Positions 1 to 34,831 are shown, counted from the first letter of the stretch. The stretch is 40,219 nucleotides of DNA from a virus (IMGVR_UViG_3300038379_000388:1-40219), one strand, 5' to 3'. Numbers and translations are program-made. Notes: generated from the letters alone by a model not told the origin.

Positions 1-8
1 AGAGCCCG
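1..8. repeat. Terminal overlap AGAGCCCG, identical to 40212..40219 (circularisation point; unit length 40211 bp)
   Basis: The first and last 8 nt are identical. Merging them gives an open minus-strand frame reading ...PHFQVPT-GLSWRD-VADLALRGG... Confidence 0.88.
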
Positions 9-1234
9 GTCGGGACCTGGAAGTGAGGCTGCGTGGCTAGCGTGAACGGGAGCCCTGCCTGCACCGAGTTCAGGTCGGCGAGGAACTGTTCGGCGCACGG
101 CTCTGTGTAGGTGGAGAAGCTCGTGGTCAGTAGATCGCAGTCCTTGAGGCGCCTGCCCTTGGACCCGTAAGCCGATGGCACGGCCCAATTGTCATTCATG
201 TAGAGAGAGACGGAGCCCTCGTTAGCAAGGCGCGCCACGATCCCGCGGCGCTCGCTCACGCCGCTGAATTGCCCAGAAGTGGGTGTCGAGGCATCGCCGG
301 CCAAGATGCCGTTCGAGGTAAAGTCCATCCGTAACACGTTGTCCGCCGAGACGAGCTGGATCGCGGCGGGCTCCGAGACGTTGTGGATCAGGTTGCCGTG
401 CATTTGAATGTTGATCGGCGTCGTGACGGGCTGAGTCCCAGCGCTTCCGTCCTGGTAGCCACCGCTGACGAGTGGGTTTCTGGAGTCGCAGCCCGTGAAC
501 AGGTTGTTCACGAACGAGATGTTGCCCACGTCGTGCGAGAGGAGAGAGCACTTGCGCGAGTCCACCTCGCCTTCCATGCCCTGCGCGATGATGCTCCTCT
601 CAATGGTCACGTCGCGCACCGAGCCGCCGTAGGGGGCCGCGATGGAGAGCACTTCGTCCCAGCCCCACCGAGCCGTCACGTTTCGTAGGTAGAGGCGATG
701 GATCTCGCGGTCCTCGTCGTACATGACCGGCGGTATGTAGGAGAGAGCAACGTCCTCCTGTCTTAGGCGCGGGATGATGGTAATGGCGTCCTGGTTGCAG
801 ACCGTAGGGATGTCGGCCCCACTGAACGTTAGGTGCTCGAAGATCTGGTTCGAGCCAGAGATGGAGAACGAGCACCCCACGATCTCTACGCCATCGGGTC
901 CTGCAGTAGAGCCGTCGATGGTGAGGTTATCCTGCACGCAGTAGAGGTTGGCCGTCGTGAGGATCTGCCCTTCAAGGCCATCGAAGTCCACCGAGCACCC
1001 GTTCTGCGCCGTGCAGCAGGTGTTCCGCCCCTCGCAAATCTCGCGCAGGGTGTCGGTGGCAGTCGGCTCATCAGAGAGCGAGGCCACGGTGCAGGTCGGC
1101 TTCCCGGCGCCACCGGTCGCGCCGGACGCGAATCCGATGCGCTGCTTGAAGGGCACCATCGTCGGGTCGGCCGGGATGCCCCGAGCCCCCAGGAGCAGCA
1201 GGGCCAGCGAGGCGATCAGTACGCGCGCGGCCAC
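1..1234 (-). CDS. N-terminal part of a ~1992-aa exported multidomain protein: signal peptide plus PL1 pectate-lyase-like beta-helix (continues at 40219..35467; missing from the ORF track)
   Basis: Translated by hand: GTG at 1234 preceded by GGAGG, then MAARVLIASLALLLLGARG-IPAD...GFASGATGGAGKPTCTVASLSD...NLTIDGSTAGPDGVEI...QDAITI...RWGWDEVLSI...ISFVNNLFTGCDSRNP. No stop before position 1. The motifs match the PL1 pattern GFG-TTGG/TIAGQTAPGDG/WS-DE/SFHHNL/RNP. Confidence 0.88.
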   Translation of the reverse strand, partial: MAARVLIASLALLLLGARGIPADPTMVPFKQRIGFASGATGGAGKPTCTVASLSDEPTATDTLREICEGRNTCCTAQNGCSVDFDGLEGQILTTANLYCVQDNLTIDGSTAGPDGVEIVGCSFSISGSNQIFEHLTFSGADIPTVCNQDAITIIPRLRQEDVALSYIPPVMYDEDREIHRLYLRNVTARWGWDEVLSIAAPYGGSVRDVTIERSIIAQGMEGEVDSRKCSLLSHDVGNISFVNNLFTGCDSRNPLVSGGYQDGSAGTQPVTTPINIQMHGNLIHNVSEPAAIQLVSADNVLRMDFTSNGILAGDASTPTSGQFSGVSERRGIVARLANEGSVSLYMNDNWAVPSAYGSKGRRLKDCDLLTTSFSTYTEPCAEQFLADLNSVQAGLPFTLATQPHFQVPTGL

Positions 1235-4113
1235 TCCCCACCTCCGCCGCTGCCACTGGCATACGGGATCGCCAGCACTTCGGGCTCAAGCCCGGCCGTC
1301 GAGAGCGACCACGAGAAGTCACGCACACCTGGCGCGTTCACGCCCTGTCTGGGCCCACAGGCCGCCTTCCCGTAGCGCCCACTCGGATGAACGAGGTGCG
1401 TTCCCGAGTATGGGTTCGGGTACTCCGGCGAGCCATCTTGGAATGTCTCGAAGTAGTTCTGAATGAAGTCGCACGACGAACCCGGGCAGTTGCCTCCGGT
1501 GTTTCTCATGTCGTTCGAGTAGTCCTGCCCGTTGTTCCATGCACAGAGGGGGCCAGACGCCGTGTATTGCGAGAAGCCGTTCCCGCTGTTCCAGTAGAGG
1601 TCGAACGCCGGCCCCGACGAGCTCGCGGCCGTCGTGTTGAGCACGTTGGCTACCAGGATACCGCCAAGCTGATAGGTGCCGGTCGCGGTCTGACCGACCG
1701 CGGAGCCGCTGAAGCCGATGGTGTACCGGCGCGTGCGGGGGACCGAGGGCCGGTAGCTGATGCCGATGCGCTCAGCCACCGTGTTCGTGCCGCGTGTGAG
1801 CGATAGAACCCGGCAGCCGCCCGAGCAGGTGTTCGACGTGCCGTCGCGCTGGATGTCGATGAAAGCAAGGTTTTCGAGGCGGAACGCGCTCGTTGCCGAG
1901 TTGCTCGACAAGATGGCCGTCGCGTTGTTCCCGAAGAACACCCCGTTGTCGATGATCCCATTCTTGAGCGTGACCGCCGCGTCCTGCCCCGGGAATAGAA
2001 GCTGCGGGTTCCCGGTGTCTCGCATCTCGAAGTCGCGGATCACGAAGCGGTCGAACGTTCCGGTGCCGAACATCTGCTGGTGGGTCACGCCTGCCCGGAT
2101 GATCGACCCGACGCTCGTGAGGTTGGTGATGGTCGAGTCTGCGATTTCGACGTTGATCTGCGCCTCCGAGCCGATCACGGTCAGCCCGTTCACGTCGAAG
2201 CCCGTGATGGTCATGGTCGGGTGGGCCGGCACGGGGAGCGAGGTGTCTAGCAGCACCGGAGCCCCGTCTCGACTGGTACACGATGCGCAGTAGGCGTCCT
2301 CGACGTAGATGCGGTCGCCTGTCTCGGCGTGGTGCCCGCCGAAGTCCCAGCCGGAGCCAGAGCCATCCTGACCGTTCTGGAACTCCGCACGGGACCGGAT
2401 CAGGCGAATGTCCGTGGAGCCATCGCCGACCGTACAATAGAGCGACGTGGGCTCCGACATGTAGAAGCCGTCGAAGTCCCACCACATGTCGTCGCCCGTG
2501 TGACGGACCGACGAGTCCTCGATGGTGACGTCGTGCGAGCACGCCCAGCCCGCCCCGTGCCGGTTGTCTCCACTTGTCAGCACCACGCGCCGCACATCCA
2601 CGCTGTCGGAGTTCACGATCTCGAAGAGCGCATTGGTGTCCATCGGGTCGCGCAGCCAGACGTTCTCGAACTTGTTGACCGTCGGGCTCGTAGCCCCGGG
2701 CGTTCGATCCCCGATCACGACCCGGCTCGGCCGCTCGAATACGACGTTTTGCACCGCCACCGTGCCCTTGAAGTGGTACGGGGCGACCAGGGAGTCCGTC
2801 GTGTTGCTCGAAGAGATGGTGACGGGGGCCATGATGGCGATGGGCTGCCCACGCTGGAGCCCTTCGTCGATCCAGACGCGCTCTCCCGAAGCGTGCGGCT
2901 CAGCGACGCCGTTCTTGTCCGCAATCAGGATAACGTCGTCGTTCTCGTTGCCAGGGGCTCCGGCTGCGTAGCCTGCGTTCTCCTTCGCCTGCGCGATCAG
3001 GTATCCGCGCTCCGCAGGGCACTCGCCTGCCCCATCCCCGGTGCAGCATGCACGAGGCTTCCCGCTGGCCGTACACTGAGAGTTGTCCTCGAAGCGGAGC
3101 CAGCGCCCCACCATGTCCATGTTGGCGGTCACGAGGTTGTCAGTGGTCGCCGACGCGAACACGAACTTGCGCTGCCCTGTGGTCGTCGCAGCGGTAAGGA
3201 CGCCGGAGCGCAGGTCGCGCTTTGCAAGCGGCCACCACGGCGAGCCACCCACGGCGTCCTCGACGCCCTGCCGCACGTTGATGTCGATGGAGTTGATCGT
3301 CGAAGCCGTGCTCTTGGCCACGATGTTGAAGAACTGGTTGACGCTCGGATAGGTGAAGGCGTCCCCGGGGTAGGGGTCGTAGGTCATGATCACGTCGCTC
3401 GTCGCGATCGCGGCCCAATTCGTATCGAGGAAGGCGCGGCCCGCATTCGGGGCTCCCGTCGCGTGATCCGACTCGTCCCACTCGTTCGTCCCGTCCGGGA
3501 AGCTCGTGAACGGGGTCCCCACCGAATACGAGAGCCGTGTCACCTGGGTATCGCTCGCGCAGTCGTAGCCCGTACCTGAGGATCCCGGGCAATGCACCAG
3601 ATCCCCAACCTGCCAGTAGGCAGACGACGAAGGCTCGTCGAGGAGCTGAGCCGTCGAGGCTCCGTAGGAGCGAAACTTTCCCTGCAAGACGAGCGTAGTG
3701 CCTAGCTCCTGCGTCCATCCCTGGGAACCGACTGTGACGGTGGGCGTCACGGTGGCTGACGTGCGGAGTACCTGGATCGAGCTGGTGCCCTCTTGGGCGA
3801 TGCCTCCGAGCCCGTCGATCAGGAGCGACCCGTTGATGACCCCGGCGCTCGTGCCCTGCGTCCGCAGGATCGACGTGGCAGCGCCGCCCGTATCCAAGTC
3901 CACGGTCGAGCCCGCCGGAATCGTCCAGTTGCATCCATTTCCGGGGCGGAACTCATCGTCTGCGGTGGGGGTGCAGCCCGTCCACTGGCTCGCCGGGTTG
4001 GTCGTACCGACCGCCGTCCAGTCGAAGGTGGTGTTCGTGCAGGTGCAGAGTTCCGCGCGCGCCAGGGCGGGTGCGAGCAGGAGCAGAAGCGCCGCGAGGA
4101 GGACGGAGCGCAT
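1216..4113 (-). CDS. 965-aa exported Cys-rich parallel beta-helix protein (putative glycan depolymerase or receptor-binding protein)
   Basis: The likely start is ATG 4113, giving MRSVLLAALLLLLAPALARA-EL (Sec signal with A-x-A site). 20 Cys counted. Beta-helix-like repeats include HDVTIEDSSVRHTGDD, which resembles the GH28 TGDD motif. The C-terminus is SGSGGGGEWPRAY. Confidence 0.8.
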   Translation of the reverse strand: MRSVLLAALLLLLAPALARAELCTCTNTTFDWTAVGTTNPASQWTGCTPTADDEFRPGNGCNWTIPAGSTVDLDTGGAATSILRTQGTSAGVINGSLLIDGLGGIAQEGTSSIQVLRTSATVTPTVTVGSQGWTQELGTTLVLQGKFRSYGASTAQLLDEPSSSAYWQVGDLVHCPGSSGTGYDCASDTQVTRLSYSVGTPFTSFPDGTNEWDESDHATGAPNAGRAFLDTNWAAIATSDVIMTYDPYPGDAFTYPSVNQFFNIVAKSTASTINSIDINVRQGVEDAVGGSPWWPLAKRDLRSGVLTAATTTGQRKFVFASATTDNLVTANMDMVGRWLRFEDNSQCTASGKPRACCTGDGAGECPAERGYLIAQAKENAGYAAGAPGNENDDVILIADKNGVAEPHASGERVWIDEGLQRGQPIAIMAPVTISSSNTTDSLVAPYHFKGTVAVQNVVFERPSRVVIGDRTPGATSPTVNKFENVWLRDPMDTNALFEIVNSDSVDVRRVVLTSGDNRHGAGWACSHDVTIEDSSVRHTGDDMWWDFDGFYMSEPTSLYCTVGDGSTDIRLIRSRAEFQNGQDGSGSGWDFGGHHAETGDRIYVEDAYCASCTSRDGAPVLLDTSLPVPAHPTMTITGFDVNGLTVIGSEAQINVEIADSTITNLTSVGSIIRAGVTHQQMFGTGTFDRFVIRDFEMRDTGNPQLLFPGQDAAVTLKNGIIDNGVFFGNNATAILSSNSATSAFRLENLAFIDIQRDGTSNTCSGGCRVLSLTRGTNTVAERIGISYRPSVPRTRRYTIGFSGSAVGQTATGTYQLGGILVANVLNTTAASSSGPAFDLYWNSGNGFSQYTASGPLCAWNNGQDYSNDMRNTGGNCPGSSCDFIQNYFETFQDGSPEYPNPYSGTHLVHPSGRYGKAACGPRQGVNAPGVRDFSWSLSTAGLEPEVLAIPYASGSGGGGEWPRAY

Positions 4114-4115
4114 CG

Positions 4116-4580
4116 CTAGAGCACGAGCGCGCAGACGATCAGGTCCGCGCCGGTAGCAATGGTCGAAGGATCGGCGTACAGCCACCCGGCCATCGCCGCG
4201 CGCTCGAGGCCGCGCTTCATCTCCGACACGCCGTCGAGCTCGTTGTTCTCTTTCACACCGTCGCCGTCCGCGTCCCAGCGGTACGGCTCGCAGGTCGCAA
4301 CGTCCTTCGCGTTGCAGGTGTAGAGACCGATCAGCGATCCACCCGCACCGTCAAAGTTGGCCGAGAACACCACGCTACCGAGCCACAGGAAGTCGCTCTC
4401 ATTTGTGGCGTCCGGGAACTGGAGCACCGCGCACTGGCCCGGCTGTAGGCTCTTCACCGCCCCCTGTCCCACCGTCCCGTCGTTTCGGAACTGCTTCCAG
4501 ATCACCGTGTTTGCTGCGCTGGCCGAGCTCGCAGCGAGCGCCACGGCGGCCACGATGGCCGCGATCTTCACCTTGTCCAC
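4116..4580 (-). CDS. 154-aa exported protein with a DxDxDG calcium-binding-type loop
   Basis: Signal peptide MDKVKIAAIVAAVALAASSASA-AN; 4 Cys; DADGDGVKEN; purine-rich RBS (GGGGTGAGAG) before the GTG. Confidence 0.8.
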   Translation of the reverse strand: MDKVKIAAIVAAVALAASSASAANTVIWKQFRNDGTVGQGAVKSLQPGQCAVLQFPDATNESDFLWLGSVVFSANFDGAGGSLIGLYTCNAKDVATCEPYRWDADGDGVKENNELDGVSEMKRGLERAAMAGWLYADPSTIATGADLIVCALVL

Positions 4581-4590
4581 CTCTCACCCC

Positions 4591-6642
4591 CTAGTCGGCT
4601 GTGCCGACCGCGCGCACCCCCGCACGCGCGATATATCCCTTCATGCGGAGCGCCCACCCGGGGAACTCCGTGTTCGCTGGATTCGCGAGCAGATCGCGCG
4701 CGAGCCGCGGATCCCGTAGCGCCGCGCGCATGATCTTCTCCGCCTCCTGGGGCGCGACGTTGCGCGTCACCCACTGGACGGCCCGGCTCCCGGCGCCACG
4801 CTTCGCGATCTGCGCGGCCGCGGCAACCGGGTTCGGCGCCACGAGCGCGTCGATCATCGAGAGGAGCGCGCCTGCCGCCGGGACGTTCGAGCCGGTCATG
4901 TGCGCCGCCGCGGGCGTCCCTGCGCGGGTCGCTTGCAGCTTCTCCAACCGGCGCACGAAGAACTTGAGCCGGCGCACCTTGTCATCGCCGAGCACAGCGC
5001 GCGCCGTGTCCTCGTACTGGCGCAGTCGTTCGCCCGCCGTCCGGCCCCGGATGTGCGAGAGCTCGGGCCCCATGAGCTCGTCGAAGAACTGCGCCTCGAG
5101 CCCGGCCACGCTCTCCGCCCCGCCCTTCTCGGCGATGGCACGCAGCCGCGCGGCCTCTTTGGGATTCCCGAGGACGCTGCGCAGGGTGCGGACCTCTTCG
5201 AGGTTCTCCGAGCCCTGGAGGAGCCGGCGGACGTAGCTCGAGCGCTCGTCGAAGAGCCCGCGGAGCTCGCGCGTCGCCGTGCGCGCCTCCGTCCAGACCT
5301 CGAGCGCGGCCTCCGAGGCCACCGTCCCGGGCCGGAGGCCCTCGATCGTGTCATCCACCGAGCGCATGAGCGTCTCGGCGAAGAACCTGGTTCGGTGATT
5401 CCCCTGCGGAAGCGAGTTGGAGCGGATCGTCTCGAGCAGCTTCGAGCGAAGGGTCTGGAGCTCCTCGAACGGGATCTCATCGCCGTACTTCTCGAGGATC
5501 GTGTTGACGGCCGAGGGAAGATCCTCGGCGCCAGCCACGCCCGCGTCGCGCAGCGCCTGGGTCGCGCCGGCCTTGAGCGTCTCGGTCGGCACCCGGCCGA
5601 GCTCTGGCATCAGGTTGCGCGCGCGACGCCAGGCGTCGCGCTCGGCCGCCACGCCCTTCGCGTACACGTCGTCCACCGTGTCGAGCACTGAGCGCCCGCC
5701 CGGGCCGCGCACGTCGGTCGCGAGCTCGCGGAGAAGGCGCCCTTCGCGGATCCGCTGGCCGGCCAGGCCGCGCTGGAACTCGGGCGCCTCGCGGGCGAGC
5801 GATGCCTCGGCCGCAGCGACGCCCTGCCCGCCCTCCTCGCCAAGCGCCTGCGCGAGCGTGAGCCCGCCCGTCTGCTCCGGCGTGCGCCCCAGGAGCCGCG
5901 CAAGCTCTTCCTGGTCTGCGATCTCGTCCGTGAGCGAGCGGATGGCCGCGGCCTCCTCGCCCTCGGGCAGGAGGAGCCGGAGGCGGCGCTGCGCCTCGTC
6001 GAGCCCGGAGATGTCGCGCGAGACGCCGCCCGTCTTGTCCGAGGCGACACGGCTCATCTGCCCGCCCGCCACGCTGCGCGCGAGCGCCGGCCCGCCGGCA
6101 CTGACCGCAATATCGAGCGGCGTGGCGACCCACTCGGGGGCGCCCATCTCGCGAGCGCCCTGCCCCGCAAGGGCGCCCGTCACGGCGCTTACGCCCTCGA
6201 TCCCGAGGCGAGTGGCGCCGGCCGCGATGCCGGGGGCGCCAGTGAGCACGAGCGGCGCCGTGGCCGCGGTCCAGCCGAGCGCCTCGCCGCCGCGCTCCGC
6301 CAGTCGCTCGCCGGGCGTGACGGGCGGGCGGTAGGGCCCCGCCACCGCCTCGCCGAGGCGCGTGCCCGCTCGCTCGAGCGTGCCAGGCCCTTCGGGAGCT
6401 GGCGCCGAGCCAGGGACGGCGAGGTTTCGCAGGAACCGCGTCGCCATGTCGATCATGCCGCCGATCTGGCCGGGCGCGTTGCGGAGCGCACCCTGCGTCG
6501 CGGCGCGCACGATGCCCGGGCCCTGCGGCGCGGCGCCGAACACGTCCTCGTAGGACGGGCCCGCCGACGCGAAGTCGGCGACAGCGGGCCGCCGAGTGGT
6601 GGGCGACGAGCCGAACACCTCCTCGTAGGTGGCGCCGGCCAT
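4591..6642 (-). CDS. Large internal virion / DNA ejection protein (P22 gp16-like position)
   Basis: 683 aa, Ala/Gly/Arg-rich and helical, with Gly-rich hydrophobic segments. It is the last and largest of the ejection-protein series. Assigned by synteny and composition. Confidence 0.65.
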   Translation of the reverse strand: MAGATYEEVFGSSPTTRRPAVADFASAGPSYEDVFGAAPQGPGIVRAATQGALRNAPGQIGGMIDMATRFLRNLAVPGSAPAPEGPGTLERAGTRLGEAVAGPYRPPVTPGERLAERGGEALGWTAATAPLVLTGAPGIAAGATRLGIEGVSAVTGALAGQGAREMGAPEWVATPLDIAVSAGGPALARSVAGGQMSRVASDKTGGVSRDISGLDEAQRRLRLLLPEGEEAAAIRSLTDEIADQEELARLLGRTPEQTGGLTLAQALGEEGGQGVAAAEASLAREAPEFQRGLAGQRIREGRLLRELATDVRGPGGRSVLDTVDDVYAKGVAAERDAWRRARNLMPELGRVPTETLKAGATQALRDAGVAGAEDLPSAVNTILEKYGDEIPFEELQTLRSKLLETIRSNSLPQGNHRTRFFAETLMRSVDDTIEGLRPGTVASEAALEVWTEARTATRELRGLFDERSSYVRRLLQGSENLEEVRTLRSVLGNPKEAARLRAIAEKGGAESVAGLEAQFFDELMGPELSHIRGRTAGERLRQYEDTARAVLGDDKVRRLKFFVRRLEKLQATRAGTPAAAHMTGSNVPAAGALLSMIDALVAPNPVAAAAQIAKRGAGSRAVQWVTRNVAPQEAEKIMRAALRDPRLARDLLANPANTEFPGWALRMKGYIARAGVRAVGTAD

Positions 6643-7923
6643 CTAGCGCCACACCCCGAACTTCGCGCGGAGCTCCTCGACGGTCGGCTCGCGCCCGAGG
6701 CGATGGCGGAGCGCTGCCTTCTCGCGCTCGAACTCCTCGGGCGTCGGCTTCGGCCGCGCCGGGCCAGGCTGGGCGGGCGCGTTCGCCCACTCGGCTGGCG
6801 TCGGCTGCGCGCCGAGCGTCGCGGGATCGACCTGCACGCTCGGGCGGCCCTCGAGCTGGCCGCGAAGCGGGCCCACGACGTCCGGGTAGGCCAGGTCGGA
6901 CGGGATCCCGAAGCGCGCGGCCGTGGCGCCGTACTGCGCTTCGCGGGTCTTCTGACCCTCGTACTGCGAACGCAGGATCCCCTCGGCCTGCTGCATGTAC
7001 GAGGCCCGAAGCTCAGGCGTCAGAATGCCGCCCTCGACGAGCTTGTTGTAGGAGGCACGCACCTTGTCCGTGACGCCGCCCGCGTTCTCGGCCGTCGCAA
7101 ACTCGCCTTCACGCACGGTCGAGCCGGGGTCCACCATCTTCATGAACCCGAAGATCAGCGCGATGTCGCTCGGCCCGAGGCGCTTGTCGCCGGGCAGGTT
7201 CCCGAGCATGGCAGCCGTCTCGACGGCGGCGCGTACGCGCTGGTAGCCATCACGAACCGCTATGAAGTCGCGCGACTCCGTGACGAATCGACCGTGACCT
7301 CCGGCGATGTCGTCGTAGTTGATGCCCTCGGGCAGCCCCGCGAGCGCACCCGCGCCTCCGCCAGAGCCCGGCGCTGCGGTCTTCGGCGCGGTGTAGACGA
7401 GCTGCGGCTTCCCGTCAGGTCCGATGCGGACCAGCGACTGCCCCTCGGACACCTTCTGGAGTCCGCCATCCTCCGGCGCGTCGGGAATCGCCGTCTTCGC
7501 GATCGAAACCGCTGCCTTGGCGTCCATGCCCTGCCCGATCAGCCGCGCCGTGAGCCGACGGCGCTCGAGCGCCACCTGCTCGGGGCCCATCGCCGCCGCG
7601 GGCGCCGTCTCGCTTCGCGCCGGGTCGAGTGTCTCGACGAGCGCGCGCCGCTGCTGCTCCTCCGCCGCGGCCTCGCGCCGCGCCTTCATCACGCCGAGCA
7701 GGCTCTCGAAGCCGCCCATCTGCGACACCATCGTCATGGTCCCGAGCGGGTCGTTCTCGAGCTGGTCGGCCAAGCGGTCGGCGAGCGGGTCGCCGAGCTC
7801 GCGGAACATCTCGGCTGTCCCCGCCGCGGCACGACCGAGGAGGTTCTCCTCCTCCTGTCGCGCGCCGGAGTCCATGAGCATCTGGCCCATGCCCATGAGG
7901 AACGGGTTGGGCTGCGGGCTCAT
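6643..7923 (-). CDS. Internal virion / DNA ejection protein (gp20-like position)
   Basis: 426 aa, helical. Contains DIALIFGFMKMVDPGSTVREGEFATA, a motif I recognise from podophage DNA-transfer proteins. ATGA-coupled to the upstream gene. Confidence 0.7.
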   Translation of the reverse strand: MSPQPNPFLMGMGQMLMDSGARQEEENLLGRAAAGTAEMFRELGDPLADRLADQLENDPLGTMTMVSQMGGFESLLGVMKARREAAAEEQQRRALVETLDPARSETAPAAAMGPEQVALERRRLTARLIGQGMDAKAAVSIAKTAIPDAPEDGGLQKVSEGQSLVRIGPDGKPQLVYTAPKTAAPGSGGGAGALAGLPEGINYDDIAGGHGRFVTESRDFIAVRDGYQRVRAAVETAAMLGNLPGDKRLGPSDIALIFGFMKMVDPGSTVREGEFATAENAGGVTDKVRASYNKLVEGGILTPELRASYMQQAEGILRSQYEGQKTREAQYGATAARFGIPSDLAYPDVVGPLRGQLEGRPSVQVDPATLGAQPTPAEWANAPAQPGPARPKPTPEEFEREKAALRHRLGREPTVEELRAKFGVWR

Positions 7924-8780
7924 GAGTCGATCGCCGAGCCGGCAGCGCCACCGAGCGCGCCGCCGATCGCAGTGCCCACCCCGGGCATGATCAGCGAGCC
8001 GATCACCATGCCAAGAATCGAGCCGATGCTCCCGCCCCAGCCGCTACCACCTCCGCCCTCCTGCATGTACGACGTGGAGGTCGGCGTCAGCGCGAACGGC
8101 AAGAGCCCGAGCGCCGGGTTGAACACCGGGTTCGCCAACATCTCCTTCGCAGCGTTCTCGAAGCGGCGCTGAATCTTGATGGCCCGGTCGATCGCACCCG
8201 TCTGGAGCCCCACGTTGATGCGCGAGAGGTCCTGCTGCATCGATAGCGGGATCGCACGCATCTGCCGCTCGGCCGCGGCCTGCGCCTCTTGGCGCTCGTC
8301 GAGCGTGTCCTGGCGGATCAGCGCCGCGCGCTGCGCCGCGAGGTTCGTCGATAGATCCTCACCAGCACGCGCAAGCCGGTCGTTCAAGAATCCAGAGCGC
8401 CCGAAGCCTCGCGCGTTCGCCGCCTCCATGATCGAGGGGATCACGTCGCGCTCGAAGTCTCGCATCGACGGGTCGATGAACGCCTGATTCAGGTACGCTT
8501 CGCGCTGCGCAGGGTCGATCATGAATGCCGGCATCCCAGCCGTGCGCTGCGCGAGCGCGGAGTTTCGGAGCGGCCCAAACGGAGACTGGCCGCCCACGAA
8601 TTGACGCGCCTGCCCGAGCGCCATGCTCTGCAAGTCGCTCGCGCGAGGGAAGACCCGCGTGTTGAGCGTGATCCCCTGGCCGAGCTGCTGATTCAGGAAG
8701 CTCACGAGGTCGCCGTGCAGCGTGAGCTGGTCGGGCGAGAAGTTCGAGATCGTCTTGACGGTGGGCTTGTCGCTGCCCAT
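7920..8780 (-). CDS. DNA ejection / pilot protein (gp7-like position)
   Basis: 286 aa, Gln/Ala-rich, with ARGFGRSG and a C-terminal glycine-zipper hydrophobic tail GSILGMVIGSLIMPGVGTAIGGALGGAAG. Confidence 0.7.
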   Translation of the reverse strand: MGSDKPTVKTISNFSPDQLTLHGDLVSFLNQQLGQGITLNTRVFPRASDLQSMALGQARQFVGGQSPFGPLRNSALAQRTAGMPAFMIDPAQREAYLNQAFIDPSMRDFERDVIPSIMEAANARGFGRSGFLNDRLARAGEDLSTNLAAQRAALIRQDTLDERQEAQAAAERQMRAIPLSMQQDLSRINVGLQTGAIDRAIKIQRRFENAAKEMLANPVFNPALGLLPFALTPTSTSYMQEGGGGSGWGGSIGSILGMVIGSLIMPGVGTAIGGALGGAAGSAIDS

Positions 8781-8783
8781 TGG

Positions 8784-9173
8784 CTATGCGCCTCCTCCCA
8801 TCGCGACGATGTACGGGATGGTATTTGCCGGTGCCTGGGCATTGAGCGCAGCGGCCGCGAGCTGGTCCCAGCCGATCATGTTGATCGGCGCCTGGTAGTA
8901 GCCTGGCATCGACGGCGACTGCGGGAGCGTCTGCATCTGCGGAAGAGACGAGCGCTGCGCCTGCTGCGCGGCGAGCGCTTGCAGGCTCATGCCCATCGTC
9001 TGCTGACCCTGCGGGCTCGTGATGCCCGTCGTGATCCGGTCGAGAAGGCTGGCCCAGTTCACCCCGCTCGCGGACGGCGCCACACCCGTGAGAGAGCTGC
9101 CGATCCCCTGCGCTGCACCGCCTCCTCCGACGCCAGCCCCGATACCAGCACCTAGCCCGCTGAGCGACAGCAT
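8784..9173 (-). CDS. Small Gly/Ala/Gln-rich internal virion protein
   Basis: 129 aa, low complexity, at the start of the ejection series and coupled to the upstream stop (TGATG). Confidence 0.6.
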   Translation of the reverse strand: MLSLSGLGAGIGAGVGGGGAAQGIGSSLTGVAPSASGVNWASLLDRITTGITSPQGQQTMGMSLQALAAQQAQRSSLPQMQTLPQSPSMPGYYQAPINMIGWDQLAAAALNAQAPANTIPYIVAMGGGA

Positions 9174-9586
9174 CAGTGGACCTCCGCGCGCATCACCACG
9201 CCGAGTCGCTCCGGCCGAAACTCAGGGAACAGCCTCTCGTAGACCTTCGGGTGGTCCGTCTCGAAGAACACGTGCGTGTGGCCGCGCTGCTTCGCCTCCT
9301 GCTGCGCCACGAAACACGCAATCCTGACCACCGCCTTCGCGAGCCGCGGACTCCGGTAGGTGCGGTCGATGATCAGCGTGTCGATCGTGATGCCGCGGTG
9401 GAATGCGTTGTCGGATAGGCAGAAGAGCGCCGCCGGCTCCTCGTTCGCACCCACGTAGATCGCGTACGCGCGCCAGTCGGTGTCCGCTAGCGCCTCGTCG
9501 AGCACTAGATTCAGGTCCCAGTCCTTCTGGCGCAGGAGCCGCTCAGGAACCCGGTCGAGCGTCGTTCGTTCGATGGTGAGGTTCAC
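9173..9586 (-). CDS. GNAT-fold-like virion assembly protein (T7 gp13-like position)
   Basis: The likely start is GTG 9586 after GGAG. IDTLIIDRTYRSPRLAKAVVRIACFVAQQEAKQRGHTHVFFET resembles GNAT motifs A/B. It lies between the tail and ejection genes. Confidence 0.55.
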   Translation of the reverse strand: MNLTIERTTLDRVPERLLRQKDWDLNLVLDEALADTDWRAYAIYVGANEEPAALFCLSDNAFHRGITIDTLIIDRTYRSPRLAKAVVRIACFVAQQEAKQRGHTHVFFETDHPKVYERLFPEFRPERLGVVMRAEVH

Positions 9587-9590
9587 GCTG

Positions 9591-10007
9591 CTACTCCAGG
9601 TACGAAGTGAGGCCACCCTGCACGGCTACCGCACCTGAGAGCGTCATCACGAAGTCGTCGCCAGTGGCACGCGCGCGGAAGATGGGCTGGCCGCCGTTGC
9701 TCCAGATCAGCTCGCCGGCACCGGAGAAGACGTGCGGCCCGCTGATCACGGTGCTCCCCGACTTGAACGTCACGTTCACGGGCCCCACAGCCCGGATGCG
9801 CAGGTACGTGATGCAGAAGCGCTTTCCGTCCTGCACCGCGAGCAGCACGTGGTCGGCCGCCGTGTTCTTGTCGATCACGTAGGGAAGGACGTCGTTACGC
9901 ATGGCATCCACCGCCGAGCGACCGAGCTCTGCCACGAGGACACGCACGAGCTCTACGCCCCACGCCTGCCACGAGCCGTAGTCGCGCGGAAGCGGAAGCG
10001 CCCTCAT
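9591..10007 (-). CDS. Putative tail accessory protein
   Basis: 138 aa with an N-terminal helix and a beta-rich C-terminal domain. ATGA overlap with the nozzle gene. Confidence 0.55.
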   Translation of the reverse strand: MRALPLPRDYGSWQAWGVELVRVLVAELGRSAVDAMRNDVLPYVIDKNTAADHVLLAVQDGKRFCITYLRIRAVGPVNVTFKSGSTVISGPHVFSGAGELIWSNGGQPIFRARATGDDFVMTLSGAVAVQGGLTSYLE

Positions 10008-11836
10008 GCGACCTCACGTCCCACCCCCACGCGGGCGAAGTACGGCACCACGGCGTCGATGCCCTTGCCCGAGAGGCCGCGCGCCTCGAGCTCGATCGTG
10101 TGGCGCTCGGCGATCTGGTTGGCAGGCACACGCCGGCGTACCTTCGTCGCGTCGATCGGCGTGGCCGTGGACCCGAGGTCCCGCTCGACCACGGCGTAGG
10201 GCGCGTCTCGGTACTGGCGCGCCAGGCGCACGGTCACCTTCGCCAGCGCCACGCGATCCGCGATCACGTCCACGTGCCCGAGCCGGCAGCGGTCGAGCTT
10301 GTACGGGTTCAACTGCTGCGACTTCGCGCGACCCACGATCTCGGAGCCGTTGTCCGTGTCCTCCACGTCGAACTCGTAGACCCGCCCCGTCGGGTTGAAG
10401 TCGCCGCCCAGGATCGACGGGAACGCGACCTGGAGCCGATATTCGTCGAACGGCTCCTCCCAGTCGTCGAAGTCCTCCGAGTGCTCGTCCCATGTGAGCG
10501 TTCCGATGCGCCGGTAGCGGCCCCAGCAGTTCACGGCAAAGCTGAAGCGCGCGAAGCTCGCGTTCGTGGTCGAGAGCACGAGCGTCTTGCTAGGCGTCTC
10601 GGCATCCTTCGCGACCACCGACCACCAGACCTCCTTGTGCTCCGGCACGACGAGCGCCGAGGTCCAGTAGGAGAACTCGGCATTCACGAGGTCGCGGATC
10701 AGGTGCGGGTTGGTGCTCTCGTCGGCGTCGTCCACGCGCAGGCCGTTGCATTCGATCAGCGCATGGGTCCCAATCGCGAGTACCGCGCGGTCCACCGCGA
10801 CGGCCCCGAAGGAGCTGTCGCACCCGCGGGTCGTCGAGAGGTTCTCCCAGGAGTACGGGAAGATCGGGTCCCCGGTGTACCTGAACGCCCACGTCTCACC
10901 GCCCTCGCAGAAGTAGAGGATCGTGTCGCCGAGGACGACGGCGCTCAGAATCGCCGCCTCACTCGGGATGTCGGACCAGCGGTTGAGGTCGAGCTTCTCC
11001 GGGTTGTTCACCACCGAGAGCCAGACGCGCCCGAGGTAGAACGTCCCGTCGATCTTGAGCCCTGCGTAGAGCACGCGATCGCGGTGACGCGTGATGAGCC
11101 GCGCCGTATCCACGTGGTTCGAGCCATCCCCCACGGTGTCGAGCGTGTAGACGCCGAGCGATGCTCCGACCACCTTGCGCGGTCGGTTCACGTTGTCGGA
11201 GAAGTAGACGGCATCGCGGAACTCGCACACCACGAGGCGATCCGAGGCGCCCCCGGGCGTCCCCGTCCAGTCGATGCCGAAGTGGTCCTCGAACCGCTCC
11301 TGGACGGTGCTCCAGAGGTACGCGCGCGTCGGCGTGAAGGCCCAGAGGCGCTCAAGCCGCGTCGAGCCGTCGTAGGAGTTGATGATCCCGAGAATGGGAG
11401 CGCCGGATTCGTACTCGTACGTAATCAGGATGCTGTCGAGCGCGCACGGGGCGCCCCACGTGATCGACCATACGCCCGTCGCGTAGTTGATCGTCCCGGT
11501 GCCGCTCCCCACGAGGTTCCCGGCCCCGTCGTCAGTCACCGTCTGGGCGCCGCAGACGAACGTCACCTTGTAGGTGCTCGGCGCGACCTCGGCCGGATGC
11601 ACCGGGAGCTCGGTCAGCGTCCCGCCCGTCACCGTCAGGCCGAGATTCCCGCCGTCCGTATCGACCTGCTCCGGGTAGCAGGTGCCGAACACCCGATACC
11701 CGCGGCGCACCTCGAGCCGGCCGCGGCGCACCACCATGTCGTCGAGATCGCGCCATGTCTGCTCAGGCGCGATCCACGGCTCCTTCGCTCCGTAGAGGCC
11801 CACGCTCACGTCGGCGATCGGGTACGGCTCGTACAT
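10004..11836 (-). CDS. Tail nozzle / packaged-DNA stabilisation protein (P22 gp10 or T7 gp12-like beta-propeller)
   Basis: The likely start is ATG 11836 (TGATG overlap), 610 aa. N-terminus GLYGAKEPWIAP...DMVVRRGRLEVRRGY; propeller-like repeats; RVWLSVVNNPE; beta-sandwich C-terminus. Confidence 0.75.
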   Translation of the reverse strand: MYEPYPIADVSVGLYGAKEPWIAPEQTWRDLDDMVVRRGRLEVRRGYRVFGTCYPEQVDTDGGNLGLTVTGGTLTELPVHPAEVAPSTYKVTFVCGAQTVTDDGAGNLVGSGTGTINYATGVWSITWGAPCALDSILITYEYESGAPILGIINSYDGSTRLERLWAFTPTRAYLWSTVQERFEDHFGIDWTGTPGGASDRLVVCEFRDAVYFSDNVNRPRKVVGASLGVYTLDTVGDGSNHVDTARLITRHRDRVLYAGLKIDGTFYLGRVWLSVVNNPEKLDLNRWSDIPSEAAILSAVVLGDTILYFCEGGETWAFRYTGDPIFPYSWENLSTTRGCDSSFGAVAVDRAVLAIGTHALIECNGLRVDDADESTNPHLIRDLVNAEFSYWTSALVVPEHKEVWWSVVAKDAETPSKTLVLSTTNASFARFSFAVNCWGRYRRIGTLTWDEHSEDFDDWEEPFDEYRLQVAFPSILGGDFNPTGRVYEFDVEDTDNGSEIVGRAKSQQLNPYKLDRCRLGHVDVIADRVALAKVTVRLARQYRDAPYAVVERDLGSTATPIDATKVRRRVPANQIAERHTIELEARGLSGKGIDAVVPYFARVGVGREVA

Positions 11837-12696
11837 CAGACGTTCGCCATCCAGAGGCGCAGATCGACGCGCGGGCCGAAGCTCGCCTCCCACGCCGTCG
11901 AGTTGACTGTGCAGTTTTGGCTCGACCAGACGCGGATCGAAGCCGTTTGGGTCGCGTTCGGCGTGATGACCAGAAGCGTGCGGCGACACACGAACTCAGC
12001 GATCCCGCCGGCCACGATGTTCGCGGCCCCGGCGTGGTAGTACGTGTACGCACCAGCCCCAGGCTTGAGGCCAACCTGGGCGTGGACCTTCGCCGTGGCA
12101 CCGCTCACGTTGAACACGCTGAACGTCGCCTCGACCTCGACTTGGAGGGAGACGGCCGTCGGTAGGCTGGTCAGCGCCACCTCGAAATCGACGCCCGCCG
12201 ACGCCTCGATGGTCTTCCAGTTCCCCGTGGTGAGAGCGCCCTCGTAGGTCGTGAAGTTGTGCGCGTCCGAGCCAGCGCGCGCGCGCAAGAACTGCCACGA
12301 GGAACCGTTCCAGACCGTCGCGGCGTAGCCGCCGTCGGTCAGAATCCAGAGGTAGCCGGTCGGGAGCGTGTCGGTCAGCGCGTTGCGCTGCGCTAGCGTT
12401 CCGACGCCGTAGCCCAGGTACTGATCCCAGGTCGTTCCGTTGTGTCCTTCGACGAATTTGAGCGTCGAACGGAGAAACACGTTGCCGTCCGCCGGCGCCG
12501 TGATCGCGGTGCCACGGTCGGTGAGCGAGCCGCGCGCGAACTTGTGGCGGCCGCGCCGCGCTGCGCTCGCGTTGTCGGGGAAGTAGTGCTCCGCCGCGAT
12601 GCGCTCCTCGAGCGCGTTCATGTTCTGGCGGATCTTGTCGTCGCCGAGGTTGGCCGCCTCGGAACCTACCGGCCAAGTCTTGTCGAAGTCCACCAC
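11836..12696 (-). CDS. Short tail fibre / fibre-anchor protein
   Basis: 286 aa. N-terminus FDKTWPVGSEAANLGDDKIRQNMNAL resembles podophage fibre anchors. GTLAQR/GSLTDR and W-N-G-x-x-W fibre-shaft motifs. Beta-sandwich tip. No signal peptide. Confidence 0.7.
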   Translation of the reverse strand: MVDFDKTWPVGSEAANLGDDKIRQNMNALEERIAAEHYFPDNASAARRGRHKFARGSLTDRGTAITAPADGNVFLRSTLKFVEGHNGTTWDQYLGYGVGTLAQRNALTDTLPTGYLWILTDGGYAATVWNGSSWQFLRARAGSDAHNFTTYEGALTTGNWKTIEASAGVDFEVALTSLPTAVSLQVEVEATFSVFNVSGATAKVHAQVGLKPGAGAYTYYHAGAANIVAGGIAEFVCRRTLLVITPNATQTASIRVWSSQNCTVNSTAWEASFGPRVDLRLWMANV

Positions 12697-12698
12697 GG

Positions 12699-13343
12699 CT
12701 AGAAGTCCGCCCGCAGGCGGTAGCTCGTGGGTCGAGCCAGGCTTCGCGCGCGCATCCTCGCCACGACCGCCGGGAAGGCCGCGTCGTAGCGCTGCGCGAT
12801 GTCGTCGTAGCCGAGGTCACGCGCCACCTTCGCCGTGGCCCCGCGGATCACGGCCTCGGCCGTGAGTGAGTTCGCGATGCCGTCCGCCTCGAGCTCCTCG
12901 CGGTAGAGCTGGCAGGGCACGACGGCCGTGTATGCCTGGTCCGGGATCGGCCGGAACGTGAGCGACGAGCCGCGCACGAGCACCTCGGTAGGTCGCCCCT
13001 GCGCCGTGTCCTCTCTGTCCCACTCGGACCAGAAGTCCTCGGTGCGCGTGTAGCGGCATAGCGGAATCGTGTCGCCCAGGATCCACAGATCGCTCTGCGT
13101 CGCGCGCACCATGCCGGCGTTCGCTGCGCCGACGTCCGCTGCGCTCTCGAGGTCGTACGTCTCCTGACCGGGCACGAGCGCGAAGCGCACCTCGCCCTCC
13201 CGGAAGGTCCCGGGCACGAGATCCACCAAGTCAAACTGCCAGACGTAGTTCGCCGCGGCGAGGAGACGCGTTCCGTCGAGCACGTCTCCGGCTGCGTCTC
13301 CCAGGTTCACCCGTATGGCTGCCACGATCTCGTCGCGCGTCAT
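12699..13343 (-). CDS. Head-tail adaptor (tail tubular A-like)
   Basis: 214 aa. MTRDEIVAAIR, LVPGQETYDL, GRPTEV, LTFRPIPDQAY and a terminal helical bundle. Follows the capsid genes. Confidence 0.8.
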   Translation of the reverse strand: MTRDEIVAAIRVNLGDAAGDVLDGTRLLAAANYVWQFDLVDLVPGTFREGEVRFALVPGQETYDLESAADVGAANAGMVRATQSDLWILGDTIPLCRYTRTEDFWSEWDREDTAQGRPTEVLVRGSSLTFRPIPDQAYTAVVPCQLYREELEADGIANSLTAEAVIRGATAKVARDLGYDDIAQRYDAAFPAVVARMRARSLARPTSYRLRADF

Positions 13344-13362
13344 GCACTCTCTCGAAGGGTTC

Positions 13363-13398
13363 GGGCGGTCCGGGGAAAGCGACTACCCCGGACCGCCC
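13363..13398. terminator. Perfect 13-bp stem hairpin after the capsid/decoration genes (terminator or mRNA-stabilising)
   Basis: GGGCGGTCCGGGG-N10-CCCCGGACCGCCC. No U-tract on the transcribed (minus) strand; TTT follows on the plus strand. Confidence 0.6.
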
Positions 13399-13424
13399 TT
13401 TCACGAGGAGGCCGCACCCCCCTG

Positions 13425-13856
13425 TTACGCGGCTTCCCGATCCTGGTTGATCCCGGCGACGAGGACCGCCACCATGATCACCGGCGCGTTGGCCGGCGCG
13501 GTGCTCGACACGTCGAGCACCACGTCCACGGTGGACGACGCGGTTGCGGGGATCACCTTGGCCCCCTTGGCCGTCGTGGGGATCACGTTGTTTGCGTGCC
13601 CACCGGCCGTCTTCAGGTCGATCGCGCCCGAGAGGGCGATGTCACCGCCCGTGTTCTCGAGGTTGACCGTGCCGGTGACAGTCGTCCCCGTCGCGGCGGT
13701 GTCCACGCGGACCTGCGCATCGAGAATGCGAGCGTCCTTCGGCAACGTGAAGAGCACGTTGCGGTCGGTGTTCGCGATCGTCGGCGTGCAGACCCGCACG
13801 AGCCACGTCCCCTCGTCGAGGGCGTGCTTCTGGTGCCTGTCGGCTGTGAGAACCAT
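13425..13856 (-). CDS. Capsid decoration / cement-like protein
   Basis: ATG 13856 with RBS GGAGGGCCGGAGAAC; 143 aa. LFTLPKDARILDAQVRVDTA is a beta-sandwich pattern typical of the gene after the major capsid gene. Confidence 0.7.
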   Translation of the reverse strand: MVLTADRHQKHALDEGTWLVRVCTPTIANTDRNVLFTLPKDARILDAQVRVDTAATGTTVTGTVNLENTGGDIALSGAIDLKTAGGHANNVIPTTAKGAKVIPATASSTVDVVLDVSSTAPANAPVIMVAVLVAGINQDREAA

Positions 13857-13873: not shown

Positions 13874-14920
13874 CTACGAGCTCGGCGCGTCGATGGTCGC
13901 GACGCGGATGAGCCCGTAGTCCTTCGAGTTGAACCGCGCCTTCTTCACGCCGAAGATCGACGCCACGCCGACGCCCGTGAGCTCGCCGTAGTCGTCCACG
14001 TCCTCGACGATCGAGAACAGGTCGCGGCTGCTCTCCACCTGGCGGCCGAGCTTCGAGTACGGGTTGCCGAACCCGATGTGCCCGGCCTGCGCGCCCAGGA
14101 GGAGCCCGTAGTTCGTGTTGCTCGCGGCGATGCGCGGCAGGTAGGTGCTCTCGTGAATCACCACCCCGTCCCACATGCCGACGGCCCCGTTGAATAGCGG
14201 GTTCTCCTCGCCCCGGTTCGCCGCCTGCGCGACAAAGCTCCGCCAGGCGTCCACACCCGTCCCCTCCTTGAGCGAGGTGATCTGGTACGGGTGGAGGAGC
14301 AGCACGAACCAGTCTCGCCCGTCGAACCGCGCGGGGCGGATCGGCGGATCCATCATCACGGCCATCTCCTTGAGGGTCGTGACGTAGGAGAGCAGGAATT
14401 GGCCCGCGCCCGTCTTGTCGAGCGCGTGCCCCGCGTCGGGAGCCGTGAGCGTGAAGCCGTTGAAGCTCACGGCGGCGGCCAGGTCGGCGTTGTCGCCGGC
14501 CGTACCGCAGAGCGAGGCGAGAAGGAACTCCTCGAACACCCGCGCGTAGAAGTCGGCGAGCTGATCCATCGCCGCCGCGCGGTAGTCGTGGAGCGTCCGC
14601 TGTTGCGTCATGGTGTCGTACCGGACGCCTTCGCGGAGCTGGTCGATCAGGAACGAGTCCTGATACCACGTGAGGGCCTGCTCGTTGCCCTTCAGCGTGT
14701 TCGACCCGTGGATGCCGTAGCCGCCGAGCCTGACCAGCAGGTCGTACTTGATCTGGTCTCCGCGCTCCTTCTTCAGGTCCGTGTGGAGCTGGATGATGGA
14801 GCCGGCGTCCGTGCCCATGAACCGCCGTGCGTACGTGCGGTTGATGGCCTCGCGCGCCATCCAGGGCGACCAGCGCTTGACCGCCTGCGGATCGGACGTG
14901 CCGATCTGCGACAGGGCCAT
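13874..14920 (-). CDS. Major capsid protein, N4-gp56 / DUF4043 family
   Basis: AVKRWS, DLKKERGDQIKYDLLVRL, LKGNEQAL, IDQLREGV, QQRTLHDYR, LHPYQITSL, NPLFNGAVGMWDGVVIHE, LLLGAQA, EDVDDYG and FGVKKARFNSKDYG. Confidence 0.93.
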   Translation of the reverse strand: MALSQIGTSDPQAVKRWSPWMAREAINRTYARRFMGTDAGSIIQLHTDLKKERGDQIKYDLLVRLGGYGIHGSNTLKGNEQALTWYQDSFLIDQLREGVRYDTMTQQRTLHDYRAAAMDQLADFYARVFEEFLLASLCGTAGDNADLAAAVSFNGFTLTAPDAGHALDKTGAGQFLLSYVTTLKEMAVMMDPPIRPARFDGRDWFVLLLHPYQITSLKEGTGVDAWRSFVAQAANRGEENPLFNGAVGMWDGVVIHESTYLPRIAASNTNYGLLLGAQAGHIGFGNPYSKLGRQVESSRDLFSIVEDVDDYGELTGVGVASIFGVKKARFNSKDYGLIRVATIDAPSS

Positions 14921-32222: not shown

Positions 32223-32575
32223 CGCACGCCCTCGTGCGTCAGGGAGAAGTGGTTCCCGTCTGGTCTGGAGAACCGACCTCCCCACGCGCAAAGAGGGTGA
32301 ACCGTCTCCCACCACTCCCCGAGCGGCGCGTAGTGCTCGCTCGCGACGAGGTACGTCCCGGCCCGGTACAGGTAGAGGTCGATCGCGAGCCGGCGCACGT
32401 GCGCCCCGTTCGCCGGGTTGCGGATCTGGCTCAGCCCGGCCCGGTTCAAGCGCATCTGCTCCTCGAGCGACCGCTCGGCCTGTCCCAGCGCCACCTCGAA
32501 GCCGAGCTCGTGGGCCCGGTCGAGGAGCCGCGGCAAGAGGCGGCTGAACAGTCGCTGCTTCTCCCCAAGGGTCAC
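32219..32575 (-). CDS. Endolysin, M15 family peptidase
   Basis: TLGEKQRLF, R-S-x-E-E-Q, HVRRLAID, LGEWWE and WGGRFSRPDGNHFS. The likely start is GTG 32575. Confidence 0.9.
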   Translation of the reverse strand: MTLGEKQRLFSRLLPRLLDRAHELGFEVALGQAERSLEEQMRLNRAGLSQIRNPANGAHVRRLAIDLYLYRAGTYLVASEHYAPLGEWWETVHPLCAWGGRFSRPDGNHFSLTHEGVR

Positions 32576-32880
32576 GGAGCTGGCCTCGGTCTGGTACACT
32601 GTGTCGCGTGGCAGTCTTCGCACGCTACGGCGGTTTGGGTATCACACTCCATGAACCGTGGAAGGATTTCGAGACGTTCTTGCAAGACATGGGGCAACGC
32701 CCAGAAGGCACTACGCTCGATCGGATCGACAACAGGAAAGGACATTTCCATGGCAACGTCCGGTGGGCGACCACCAGCGAACAGCAACGGTTCATAACGT
32801 TCCACGGACGGGAAATGCCTCTCGTCGCGGCATGTCAGTCCGTCGATATTCACTACGCGACCGTCCTCAAGCGGTTGCAC
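32572..32880 (-). CDS. Possible 102-aa ORF antisense to the HNH remnant; its stop overlaps the endolysin start (GTGA)
   Basis: Open frame with a coupling-type overlap and no recognisable motif. Confidence 0.3.
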   Translation of the reverse strand: MQPLEDGRVVNIDGLTCRDERHFPSVERYEPLLFAGGRPPDVAMEMSFPVVDPIERSAFWALPHVLQERLEILPRFMECDTQTAVACEDCHATQCTRPRPAP

Positions 32881-32925
32881 GAACTCGGCTGGGACGCAGA
32901 GCGAGCGCTCACGACGCCTTGCCGT
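32602..32925 (+). pseudogene. Degenerate HNH homing endonuclease remnant, antisense to the late operon
   Basis: YGGLGITLHEPWKDFETFLQDMGQRPEGTTLDRIDN...NVRWATTSEQQ-RFITFHG...LGWDAERALT. The N-terminus and the Asn-containing segment after EQ are missing. The DNA is AT-richer than its flanks. Confidence 0.8.
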
Positions 32926-33340
32926 CGTTCATTCGATGCTTACGCCAAGCAGACCATCCGCCAACGCGGACACCCGCCCACCGAACGAAGGCGCGCCACC
33001 GGGACAACCCGAGAGCGATCAAAGCCTCGTGGTACAGCGCATCGGCCGTAGCACGATCAACATGCCCTGTTCGGAAAAGCCAGTCGTGCAGGATTCCCGC
33101 GAGCCCGGTCCTGTACCACTCTGCCAGGTCCCAGGACTCGAGGTCGCACCAGAACGGTCGCTCGGGCGAGGCCGCGATGGGGAACTCGCACTTGTGGCGC
33201 TGGAGCTTCGGCCACCAGTATTGGTGCTCAGAGACGAACGTGACCGGGCTGGTCTGCGCCCAGAAGCGGCCATCGGCCGCCCCGTGCTCGACGTAGCCCT
33301 CTAGGCGGCCAATGAAGCGCGGCGCCGGGGGCCCGGTCAC
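32909..33340 (-). CDS. DUF1353 family protein
   Basis: FWCDLES, AGILHDWLF, RATADALYHEALIALGLSRWR and VRVGG. GTG 33340 overlaps the caspase stop. Confidence 0.85.
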   Translation of the reverse strand: MTGPPAPRFIGRLEGYVEHGAADGRFWAQTSPVTFVSEHQYWWPKLQRHKCEFPIAASPERPFWCDLESWDLAEWYRTGLAGILHDWLFRTGHVDRATADALYHEALIALGLSRWRAFVRWAGVRVGGWSAWRKHRMNDGKAS

Positions 33341-34104: not shown

Positions 34105-34116
34105 GTGTAACTCCTT

Positions 34117-34828: not shown

Positions 34829-34831
34829 CTC

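Follow-up and report, generated by a model that had tools for sequence, protein, structure and literature searches.

The window analyzed here, IMGVR_UViG_3300038379_000388, is a whole viral record of 40,219 bases (mostly 61–78% GC) that reads as a temperate short-tailed phage with its late operon on the minus strand. Within this operon, a gene for a small protein of 154 residues (4116..4580) is followed by one for a protein of 965 residues (1216..4113), both products beginning with export-type leaders. Judged from sequence and gene order, these two genes are a conserved unit, beyond chance. Their products could well form an exported accessory spike that is held by a C-terminal peptide and added to particles at lysis, a reading on which we are evenly divided. 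More tentatively, we propose that a host glycan-binding surface protein was taken by the phage, that its sorting signal was replaced by a PRA[YF] peptide, and that it is exported with a disulfide-bonded adaptor, both clipping onto mature particles at lysis. The swap would have been repeated, host adhesins and phage spikes exchanging through their last 15–60 residues only. In the established view, all particle proteins of tailed phages are assembled in the cytoplasm, so that only folds compatible with this compartment are open to them. If our proposal were true, export followed by docking would make disulfide-bonded surface proteins of the host available to a phage for receptor binding, and phage genes with leaders that are at present classed as morons or auxiliary genes may turn out to be structural.

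The export of the two proteins is supported by their leaders. These were called with a rule of our own, which asks for a basic n-region, 10 uncharged hydrophobic residues and a small-residue cleavage site, and which was loosened once, its stricter first version having failed to flag the giant protein described below. All four late proteins for which the first-pass annotation had claimed export-type leaders (154, 965, about 1992 and 129 residues, sizes that we confirm) pass this rule. Among open reading frames (ORFs) of at least 300 codons in 160 related loci, those that pass it number 7 out of 405 upstream, none out of 153 in the matched set and 8 out of 284 downstream (15 of 842 overall); none of 78 ejection-protein homologues does so. 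In the comparison that the same annotation had proposed, homologues keep their leaders by this heuristic: 19 of 21 members of the small family and 32 of the 42 large-family members of at least 800 residues pass (38 of all 55 large-family hits). The leader of the 965-residue protein comprises residues 1–20 and is followed by ELCTC. In the two families, an AxA motif precedes a conserved mature start, ETCT in the large family or else WNDC, and paired cysteines are conserved in both; in the large family, Cys23, 47, 175, 185, 857 and 919 are retained in 90–100% of aligned rows. Since the leaders are thus conserved in character across two families, with conserved mature starts and paired cysteines, they argue for export. 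The leaders might instead be nonfunctional, either uncleaved tethers or relics of capture, with assembly in the cytoplasm as for ordinary spikes and disulfides forming after lysis. Such a course has a precedent of sorts in phage Milano, whose ordinary virion proteins are disulfide-linked according to the available text of its description (PMC10811340). We consider it very improbable, for relics would decay, whereas the AxA leaders persist, always just before the conserved mature start, in families whose members share only about 20–45% identity with the window proteins.

Leader-bearing proteins are not a general trait of this locus in phages with the 426-residue ejection protein, an idea that we dropped on the downstream and upstream counts given above. 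By eye, genes of the tail region have convincing leaders in five of the 160 distant podophage-like loci, their products being unrelated: L025 (2764..4179 and 12167..13666), L019 (15098..17695), L040 (12519..13181), L099 (17321..19240) and L107 (14212..14856). The L040 product matches tail-fibre profiles, and the stretch after the L019 leader resembles what we take to be a fibre anchor. In L025, a leader protein stands directly behind a nozzle-like gene.

The family of the small protein emerged only with a profile. Single-protein searches, IMG/VR included, found no relative of the 154-residue protein (nor, in IMG/VR, of the nozzle-like protein), and it could have passed for an orphan; a three-row profile then revealed a family of 21 proteins that retain the cysteines and a DTDGDG loop. 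This DxDGDG loop, which the window protein has together with its four cysteines, presumably binds calcium. A motif scan for an IDYGW pattern gave 4 viral and 119 metagenome matches, of which 1 and 4, respectively, encode family members; it yielded phage G402 (L169), contigs L187 and L181 and two 626-base fragments. G402 is syntenic with the window from the portal to the ejection genes (capsid 42%, portal 32% and nozzle 27% identical). After its last ejection gene come a leader-bearing protein of 162 residues, 30% identical to the 154-residue protein, an 833-residue homologue of the large protein that ends in GGGSGSIGPRAY, and then lysis-type genes. L187 has the same pair behind its last ejection gene, again followed by lysis-type genes, and the large proteins of G402 and L187 end in GPRAY or VPRGF. 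Moreover, one further small protein (P0141) and one large protein that ends in PRAF (P0088) both lie on 36,200-base contigs, which are probably one contig. Of the four loci seen, three have the pair directly behind the virion genes. The fourth is L181, a stretch of 13.9 kb without a small-family gene, whose large homologue (6813..9482) is also without the PRA tail; by eye, L181 looks like a long-tailed phage, its large gene following a 1176-residue gene that resembles a tail hub by eye and has no PHROG hit. A search with the small-family profile added no viral loci to these.

As for the large protein, a homology search over 1.84 billion representatives gave 55 hits, itself included. AlphaFold2, run on a 48-row alignment, predicts a right-handed beta-helix with a large insertion (predicted local distance difference test, pLDDT, 78.5; predicted template modelling score 0.87); the last 15 residues (951–965) are disordered, with low pLDDT. 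A single-sequence fold reached a pLDDT of only 34. The match to beta-helix proteins begins at about residue 26. In fold it comes closest to capsule depolymerases, tailspikes, GH87 glucanases, alginate lyases and polygalacturonases, at 6–16% identity in the list from a second look; the alginate lyase match (Z 18.6, root-mean-square deviation 3.9, 254 residues aligned) and the tailspike match (Z 18.3, deviation 3.4, 269 aligned) are similar. The 965-residue protein, with its 20 cysteines, is predicted from the model to have the fold of a glycan lyase, a hydrolase or an adhesin. Searches of PHROG and Pfam gave no hit to an anchor domain.

The large family varies in its C termini. In the window protein, the last codons (1216..1257, minus strand) encode a glycine linker and W-P-R-A-Y, a candidate docking peptide. 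Among 45 family members of at least 700 residues, 16 end in a glycine linker with PRA[YF] or a close variant, 10 have a CGxGxE-type tail and 19 have neither. The PRA[YF] motif ends none of 2,300 control ORFs, a count to be held against the fact that the pattern was derived from the family itself. A DNA search of IMG/VR for Gly-Gly-Gly followed by PRA[FY] and a stop matched 20 stretches; no ORF of more than 77 residues ends in one of them, and they were set aside as chance hits. Among nine PRA-type proteins whose contigs were checked, six come from contigs 30–41 kb long, which fits phage genomes without proving it. The CGxGxE tail has a three-part build, with a cysteine motif, a hydrophobic, transmembrane stretch and a cluster of arginines (in 10 of the 45 by pattern and in further members by eye), and its bearers carry acidic disulfide or thrombospondin-like repeats. 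This recalls MYXO-CTERM and related tripartite sorting signals (10.1101/2023.06.07.544157), in that at least 10 homologues end in the three elements in this order, often after acidic disulfide repeats; the family motif CGxGxE is, however, not named in the available text of that paper, and the window protein has no such signal. From their tails, we infer that the CGxGxE members are cellular host surface proteins. In a quick tree of 47 rows from which the tails had been removed, the tail types need 6 changes, compared with a shuffled mean of 11.7, which suggests that they cluster yet were exchanged more than once; the starred branches force at least three changes of tail type, the long branches leaving details unsure. 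Genome searches for the host were negative. The phage-type profile had no match in a sample of 401 genomes, drawn from the phylum to which an Archangium metagenome-assembled genome belongs and including no known positive, and a CGLGxEL pattern occurred at control level in these 401 genomes and in 10 others (12 versus 3 in one).

The sorting-signal-like tails of its relatives would also suit lysogenic conversion, in which the 965-residue protein and its neighbors would be secreted or surface proteins that modify glycans from a quiet prophage, for example altering the receptor and blocking superinfection. The window does encode a serine recombinase and a repressor, and lambda lom, a leader-bearing gene among tail genes, is expressed in lysogeny according to the available text of PMC12309495. 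Lom and the XepA and YomS proteins of PBSX (PMC6834076) resemble the pair as non-core genes that adjoin tail or lysis genes and encode proteins that leave the cytoplasm. In the parts available of both papers, however, lom is an outer-membrane barrel and XepA a pentamer of a lytic cassette, unlike a glycan-acting beta-helix with a fixed partner. The layout of the locus may weigh against conversion. The late genes are as tightly packed as first described, with gaps of 10, 2, −19, 2 and 0 nt, and the view that they leave no room for a separate promoter is in keeping with a scan that covers sigma-70-type promoters only, in which neither 1..7000 nor 31500..40219 held promoter- or terminator-like sites above shuffled sequence. 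The codon adaptation of the 154-residue gene (0.63) is in line with that of the virion genes, and the phage copies of the large protein are without the membrane anchor on which surface display would draw. We regard lysogenic conversion as improbable.

An exported accessory spike could work as follows. Late in infection, the virion transcript would yield the 154- and 965-residue proteins, and Sec would take both across the inner membrane. The large protein would descend from, or exchange with, cell-surface proteins that bear a cysteine-containing sorting signal, in place of which the phage copies would have put a flexible glycine linker and PRA[YF]. Both proteins would fold with disulfides outside the cytoplasm. 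Since the N terminus is occupied by a leader, the C-terminal peptide of the large protein would be its anchor and would bind the 154-residue protein, the candidate spike-holding base, which in turn would bind the mature head or tail once holin and endolysin have acted. Binding restricted to mature capsids is known for decoration proteins such as T4 Soc and Hoc and lambda gpD. The spike would then bind or cut the host surface polysaccharide, leaving the ordinary tail job to a leaderless short fibre (11836..12696, minus strand). The window supplies parts with which this can be tested: a small protein, a short peptide, and a family in which some members have an anchor and others the peptide, a natural contrast. 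In the literature covered (titles and the beginnings of abstracts, with few subscription papers), we found no description of export and post-lysis docking of tailed-phage spikes.

Complex modeling bears on the anchoring step. With three copies of the small protein and residues 930–965 of the large one, the model scored 0.36, compared with 0.02 for the best control; the individual runs gave 0.43, 0.01 and 0.36, with a contact agreement of at least 23% and a partner pLDDT of at least 26. In the calibration, 116 of 157 solved pairs attained the mark, as did 2 of 215 mismatched ones, although at scores of 0.60 or below only 18 solved pairs and both mismatches are found, and this complex is unlike the calibration set. 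The model thus weakly suggests that the 154-residue protein may bind the PRA[YF] tail.

The arrangement is reminiscent of the head spike of the Rhodobacter capsulatus gene transfer agent (RcGTA), in which, as far as the available text of PMC7296036 goes, a pentameric base (Rcc01079) holds one fibre (Rcc01080) by a nine-residue terminal peptide. Both systems combine a small partner with one large protein (capsule-binding in RcGTA) and a short terminal peptide on a flexible link, and both would be accessory to the tail. In contrast, the window pair has leaders on both proteins and a C-terminal PRA[YF] peptide, and we found no sequence relation. The RcGTA fibre docks by an N-terminal (I/L)xLGLGL peptide in that account, which the 965-residue protein, starting with its leader and ELCTC, does not have. 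The RcGTA base is a jelly-roll pentamer; by sequence, the small family has no relative in PDB or PHROGs. By analogy, then, the pair would resemble the RcGTA head spike in its working, while falling outside that family and outside the P22-type tailspikes. With the latter and with Klebsiella-phage tailspikes and depolymerases (7vul, 7w1c, 6w4q), it shares a right-handed beta-helix, a gene position behind the ejection genes and a P22-like portal. However, an export-type leader stands where P22-type tailspikes have their N-terminal particle-binding domain, identity to these spikes is 7–13% with a Foldseek TM-score of about 0.2, and the 965-residue protein has a large helix insertion and conserved cysteine pairs. 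Phage-fibre-like adhesins that have signal peptides and act outside the cell are also known from Bdellovibrio, the MAT fibres (PMC10769870). In the available description these are nevertheless cellular, displayed on the predator surface, trimeric and often accompanied by S74 chaperones, and their traffic is in the opposite direction.

A cultured podovirus offers a partial parallel. Three consecutive large proteins of Cellulophaga phage phi18:3, gp085–gp087 (KC821620), are annotated as structural from tandem mass spectrometry (MS/MS) and pass our leader rule, which none of the eight other MS-annotated proteins in that stretch does. Their genes stand just before holin-like and glycosyl-hydrolase genes, and the first 64 residues of gp087 match phrog_27797, a profile whose lyase part matches the giant protein of the window. 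A literature search (partial texts) found no paper on the leaders of these proteins; as phi18:3 is cultured, it offers a direct test of the general question whether virion proteins have cleaved leaders.

The giant gene runs off both ends of the window. Its N-terminal part (2..1234, minus strand; 411 residues, 12 cysteines), open at the window start, has a predicted Sec leader and a pectate-lyase-like domain, a candidate for family PL1, and the remainder (35467..40218, minus strand; 1583 residues, 40 cysteines) is open at the window end. An 8-base terminal repeat (1..8, identical to 40212..40219) closes the circle in frame, giving 411 + 1583 − 2 = 1992 residues and 52 cysteines; the chance of such an 8-mer is about 4e-5. 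No contig bridges the join, and the full-length protein is therefore a deduction. The phage is present in one freshwater metagenome run, which may be the source of the record, and its covering contigs there end at 40219 and at 29, a pattern compatible with a coverage gap. No RNA run was listed as containing the phage. The N-terminal domain matches phrog_27797 (E 2.4e-6) and, far under its cut-off, the PelZ model NF041900 (E 1.3e-4; 21 bits versus 840); there was no Pfam or PDB sequence hit for it, no tblastn match in GenBank phages, and nothing useful in PDB searches with either half. The remainder has Ig- or BACON-like segments, from matches to Big_14 (E 0.068) and BACON_2 (E 0.076) that fall short of the cut-off, and presumably a second beta-helix, read by eye from motifs. 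The G+C content at third codon positions (GC3) of the giant is 0.80–0.84, compared with 0.87–0.95 in core virion genes. A stretch of 200 codons at 37218..37818 drops to 0.62–0.64 from about 0.8–0.9 around it and is likely a recently swapped domain.

The giant lends weight to another explanation, a late secreted kit for escape from the matrix. All the proteins would be exported late and freed at lysis to digest capsule or biofilm, none binding the virion, and the PRA[YF] tail would either bind the small protein, then its chaperone or carrier, or be a tag for secretion or protease recognition. The giant has a pectate-lyase-like domain, no PRA tail, the lower GC3 (0.80) and no match in G402 or L187; the fold of the 965-residue protein also matches monomeric alginate lyases, polygalacturonases and Vibrio RbmB, and an ordinary fibre is present. 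For the pair, however, a free enzyme need only lose its anchor, not gain a conserved linker peptide and a fixed partner gene, the pair stands directly behind virion genes in most loci, and the leader-bearing phi18:3 proteins are annotated as structural. We therefore hold this explanation to be unlikely for the set as a whole, if far from negligible. Of the two models in the first-pass annotation, docking on virions gains in plausibility for the pair, whose genes travel together, whose C-terminal peptide is conserved and which has a counterpart of a kind in the MS/MS-identified podovirus proteins; the four genes do not form one unit. A matrix-escape kit suits the giant better, which, like the 129-residue gene, is unmatched in G402 and L187. 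From its sequence, the giant is better read as a secreted polysaccharide lyase that was acquired later and would be freed at lysis.

Several points weigh against an exported spike that docks on particles. The phage is known from its DNA sequence alone, and the leaders were called by our heuristic and not by SignalP. Disulfides in virions do not require export, to go by the available text on Milano (PMC10811340). Context was viewed for only three other loci. The fold has matches among monomeric secreted enzymes and tailspikes alike. The 154-residue family has no PDB or PHROG relative (its one PDB match, at E 0.19, covers the DTDGDG loop), bears no likeness to a leaderless small protein of L181, and has only viral clusters in the Atlas as weak look-alikes (0.79–0.83). 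Regarding the tails, the 19 of 45 long homologues that fit neither pattern include several that are glycine-rich and about six that look anchor-like by eye, and the assignment of the CGxGxE members to cells comes from their tails, not from genomic context. The MYXO-CTERM model matched none of 48 aligned members (four NCBIfam families were hit, E 0.01), nor any of four members at E 0.5; lineage-specific forms of sorting signals need custom models, according to the part available of 10.1101/2023.06.07.544157. Finally, phi18:3 gp085–gp087 are unrelated to the pair, poor in cysteine (0, 1 and 3) and without a PRA[YF] tail, their host belongs to the Bacteroidota, and their MS/MS annotation does not show that the leaders are cleaved.

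Other proposals of the first-pass annotation have to be narrowed. Of its set of four exported genes, the pair alone is the conserved unit, the giant and the 129-residue gene having no tblastn match in G402 or L187. Its even cysteine counts of 4, 20 and 6 are correct, and the giant has 52; four even counts are expected by chance 1 time in 16, and richness in cysteine alone says little, the leaderless nozzle having 9 in 608 residues. Moreover, the exported proteins are not the only receptor-binding candidates where tail spikes were expected. The fibre at 11836..12696 has no leader, and its G402 homologue (38% identical over residues 1–122) matches tail-collar and short-fibre PHROGs (best E 3e-36), which suggests that the exported pair adds to the tail fibre and does not replace it. 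In the analyses made, nothing turned up that implicates 11836..12696 or 9591..10007 as the dock. The 129-residue ORF (35075..35464, minus strand) is a doubtful member of the set, with an Arg-rich leader called by heuristic, six cysteines, the lowest codon adaptation among 25 genes measured (0.39) and a GC3 of 0.71. Tat leaders have the consensus RRxFL within an S/T-R-R-x-F-L-K-like motif, to which ARRARGRRLGARALL, with RRLGARALL, is a poor fit, and the Tat-like character first assigned to it is weak. Smaller searches turned up no relative of this ORF; no large homology search was made for it.

The remaining genes give the setting. Library matches identify a large terminase, the P22-like portal, the major capsid protein (13874..14920) and the nozzle-like virion protein, and an endolysin (32219..32623, minus strand; phrog_465, E 5e-7) closes the late operon. 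Three cysteine-free genes at 4591..8780 are named by no library, and we call them ejection proteins from position and make-up; the last of them (4591..6642, minus strand) directly precedes the exported block. Nozzle residues 76–188 (11500..11760) are an inserted segment with matches to proteins in Bacillus phage SP-15 and in Xanthomonas phage phiXF1, as well as to phrog_6128; a tblastn search of GenBank phages with the nozzle gave three partial hits. Between the nozzle and ejection genes lies a GNAT-like acetyltransferase gene (9173..9616, minus strand; E 0.007, below cut-off) with a 29% identical counterpart in G402, which has there an extra gene for up to 488 residues (L291:3247..4713, minus strand) without counterpart in the window. 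The lysis cassette holds a caspase-family gene (33337..34104, minus strand; Peptidase_C14, E 5e-5, above cut-off; codon adaptation 0.75) with intact His-Gly and Asp-Ser-Cys motifs that are presumably catalytic, and no tblastn match to it was found in G402. Also among the lysis genes is one for a DUF1353 protein (32909..33340, minus strand; E 1.5e-8), a family that PHROG 1158 names tail assembly chaperone. A 179-residue protein (34117..34656, minus strand) with a lipoprotein-like leader (ILG followed by C) and a glycine zipper could be a fifth exported late protein, perhaps spanin-like.

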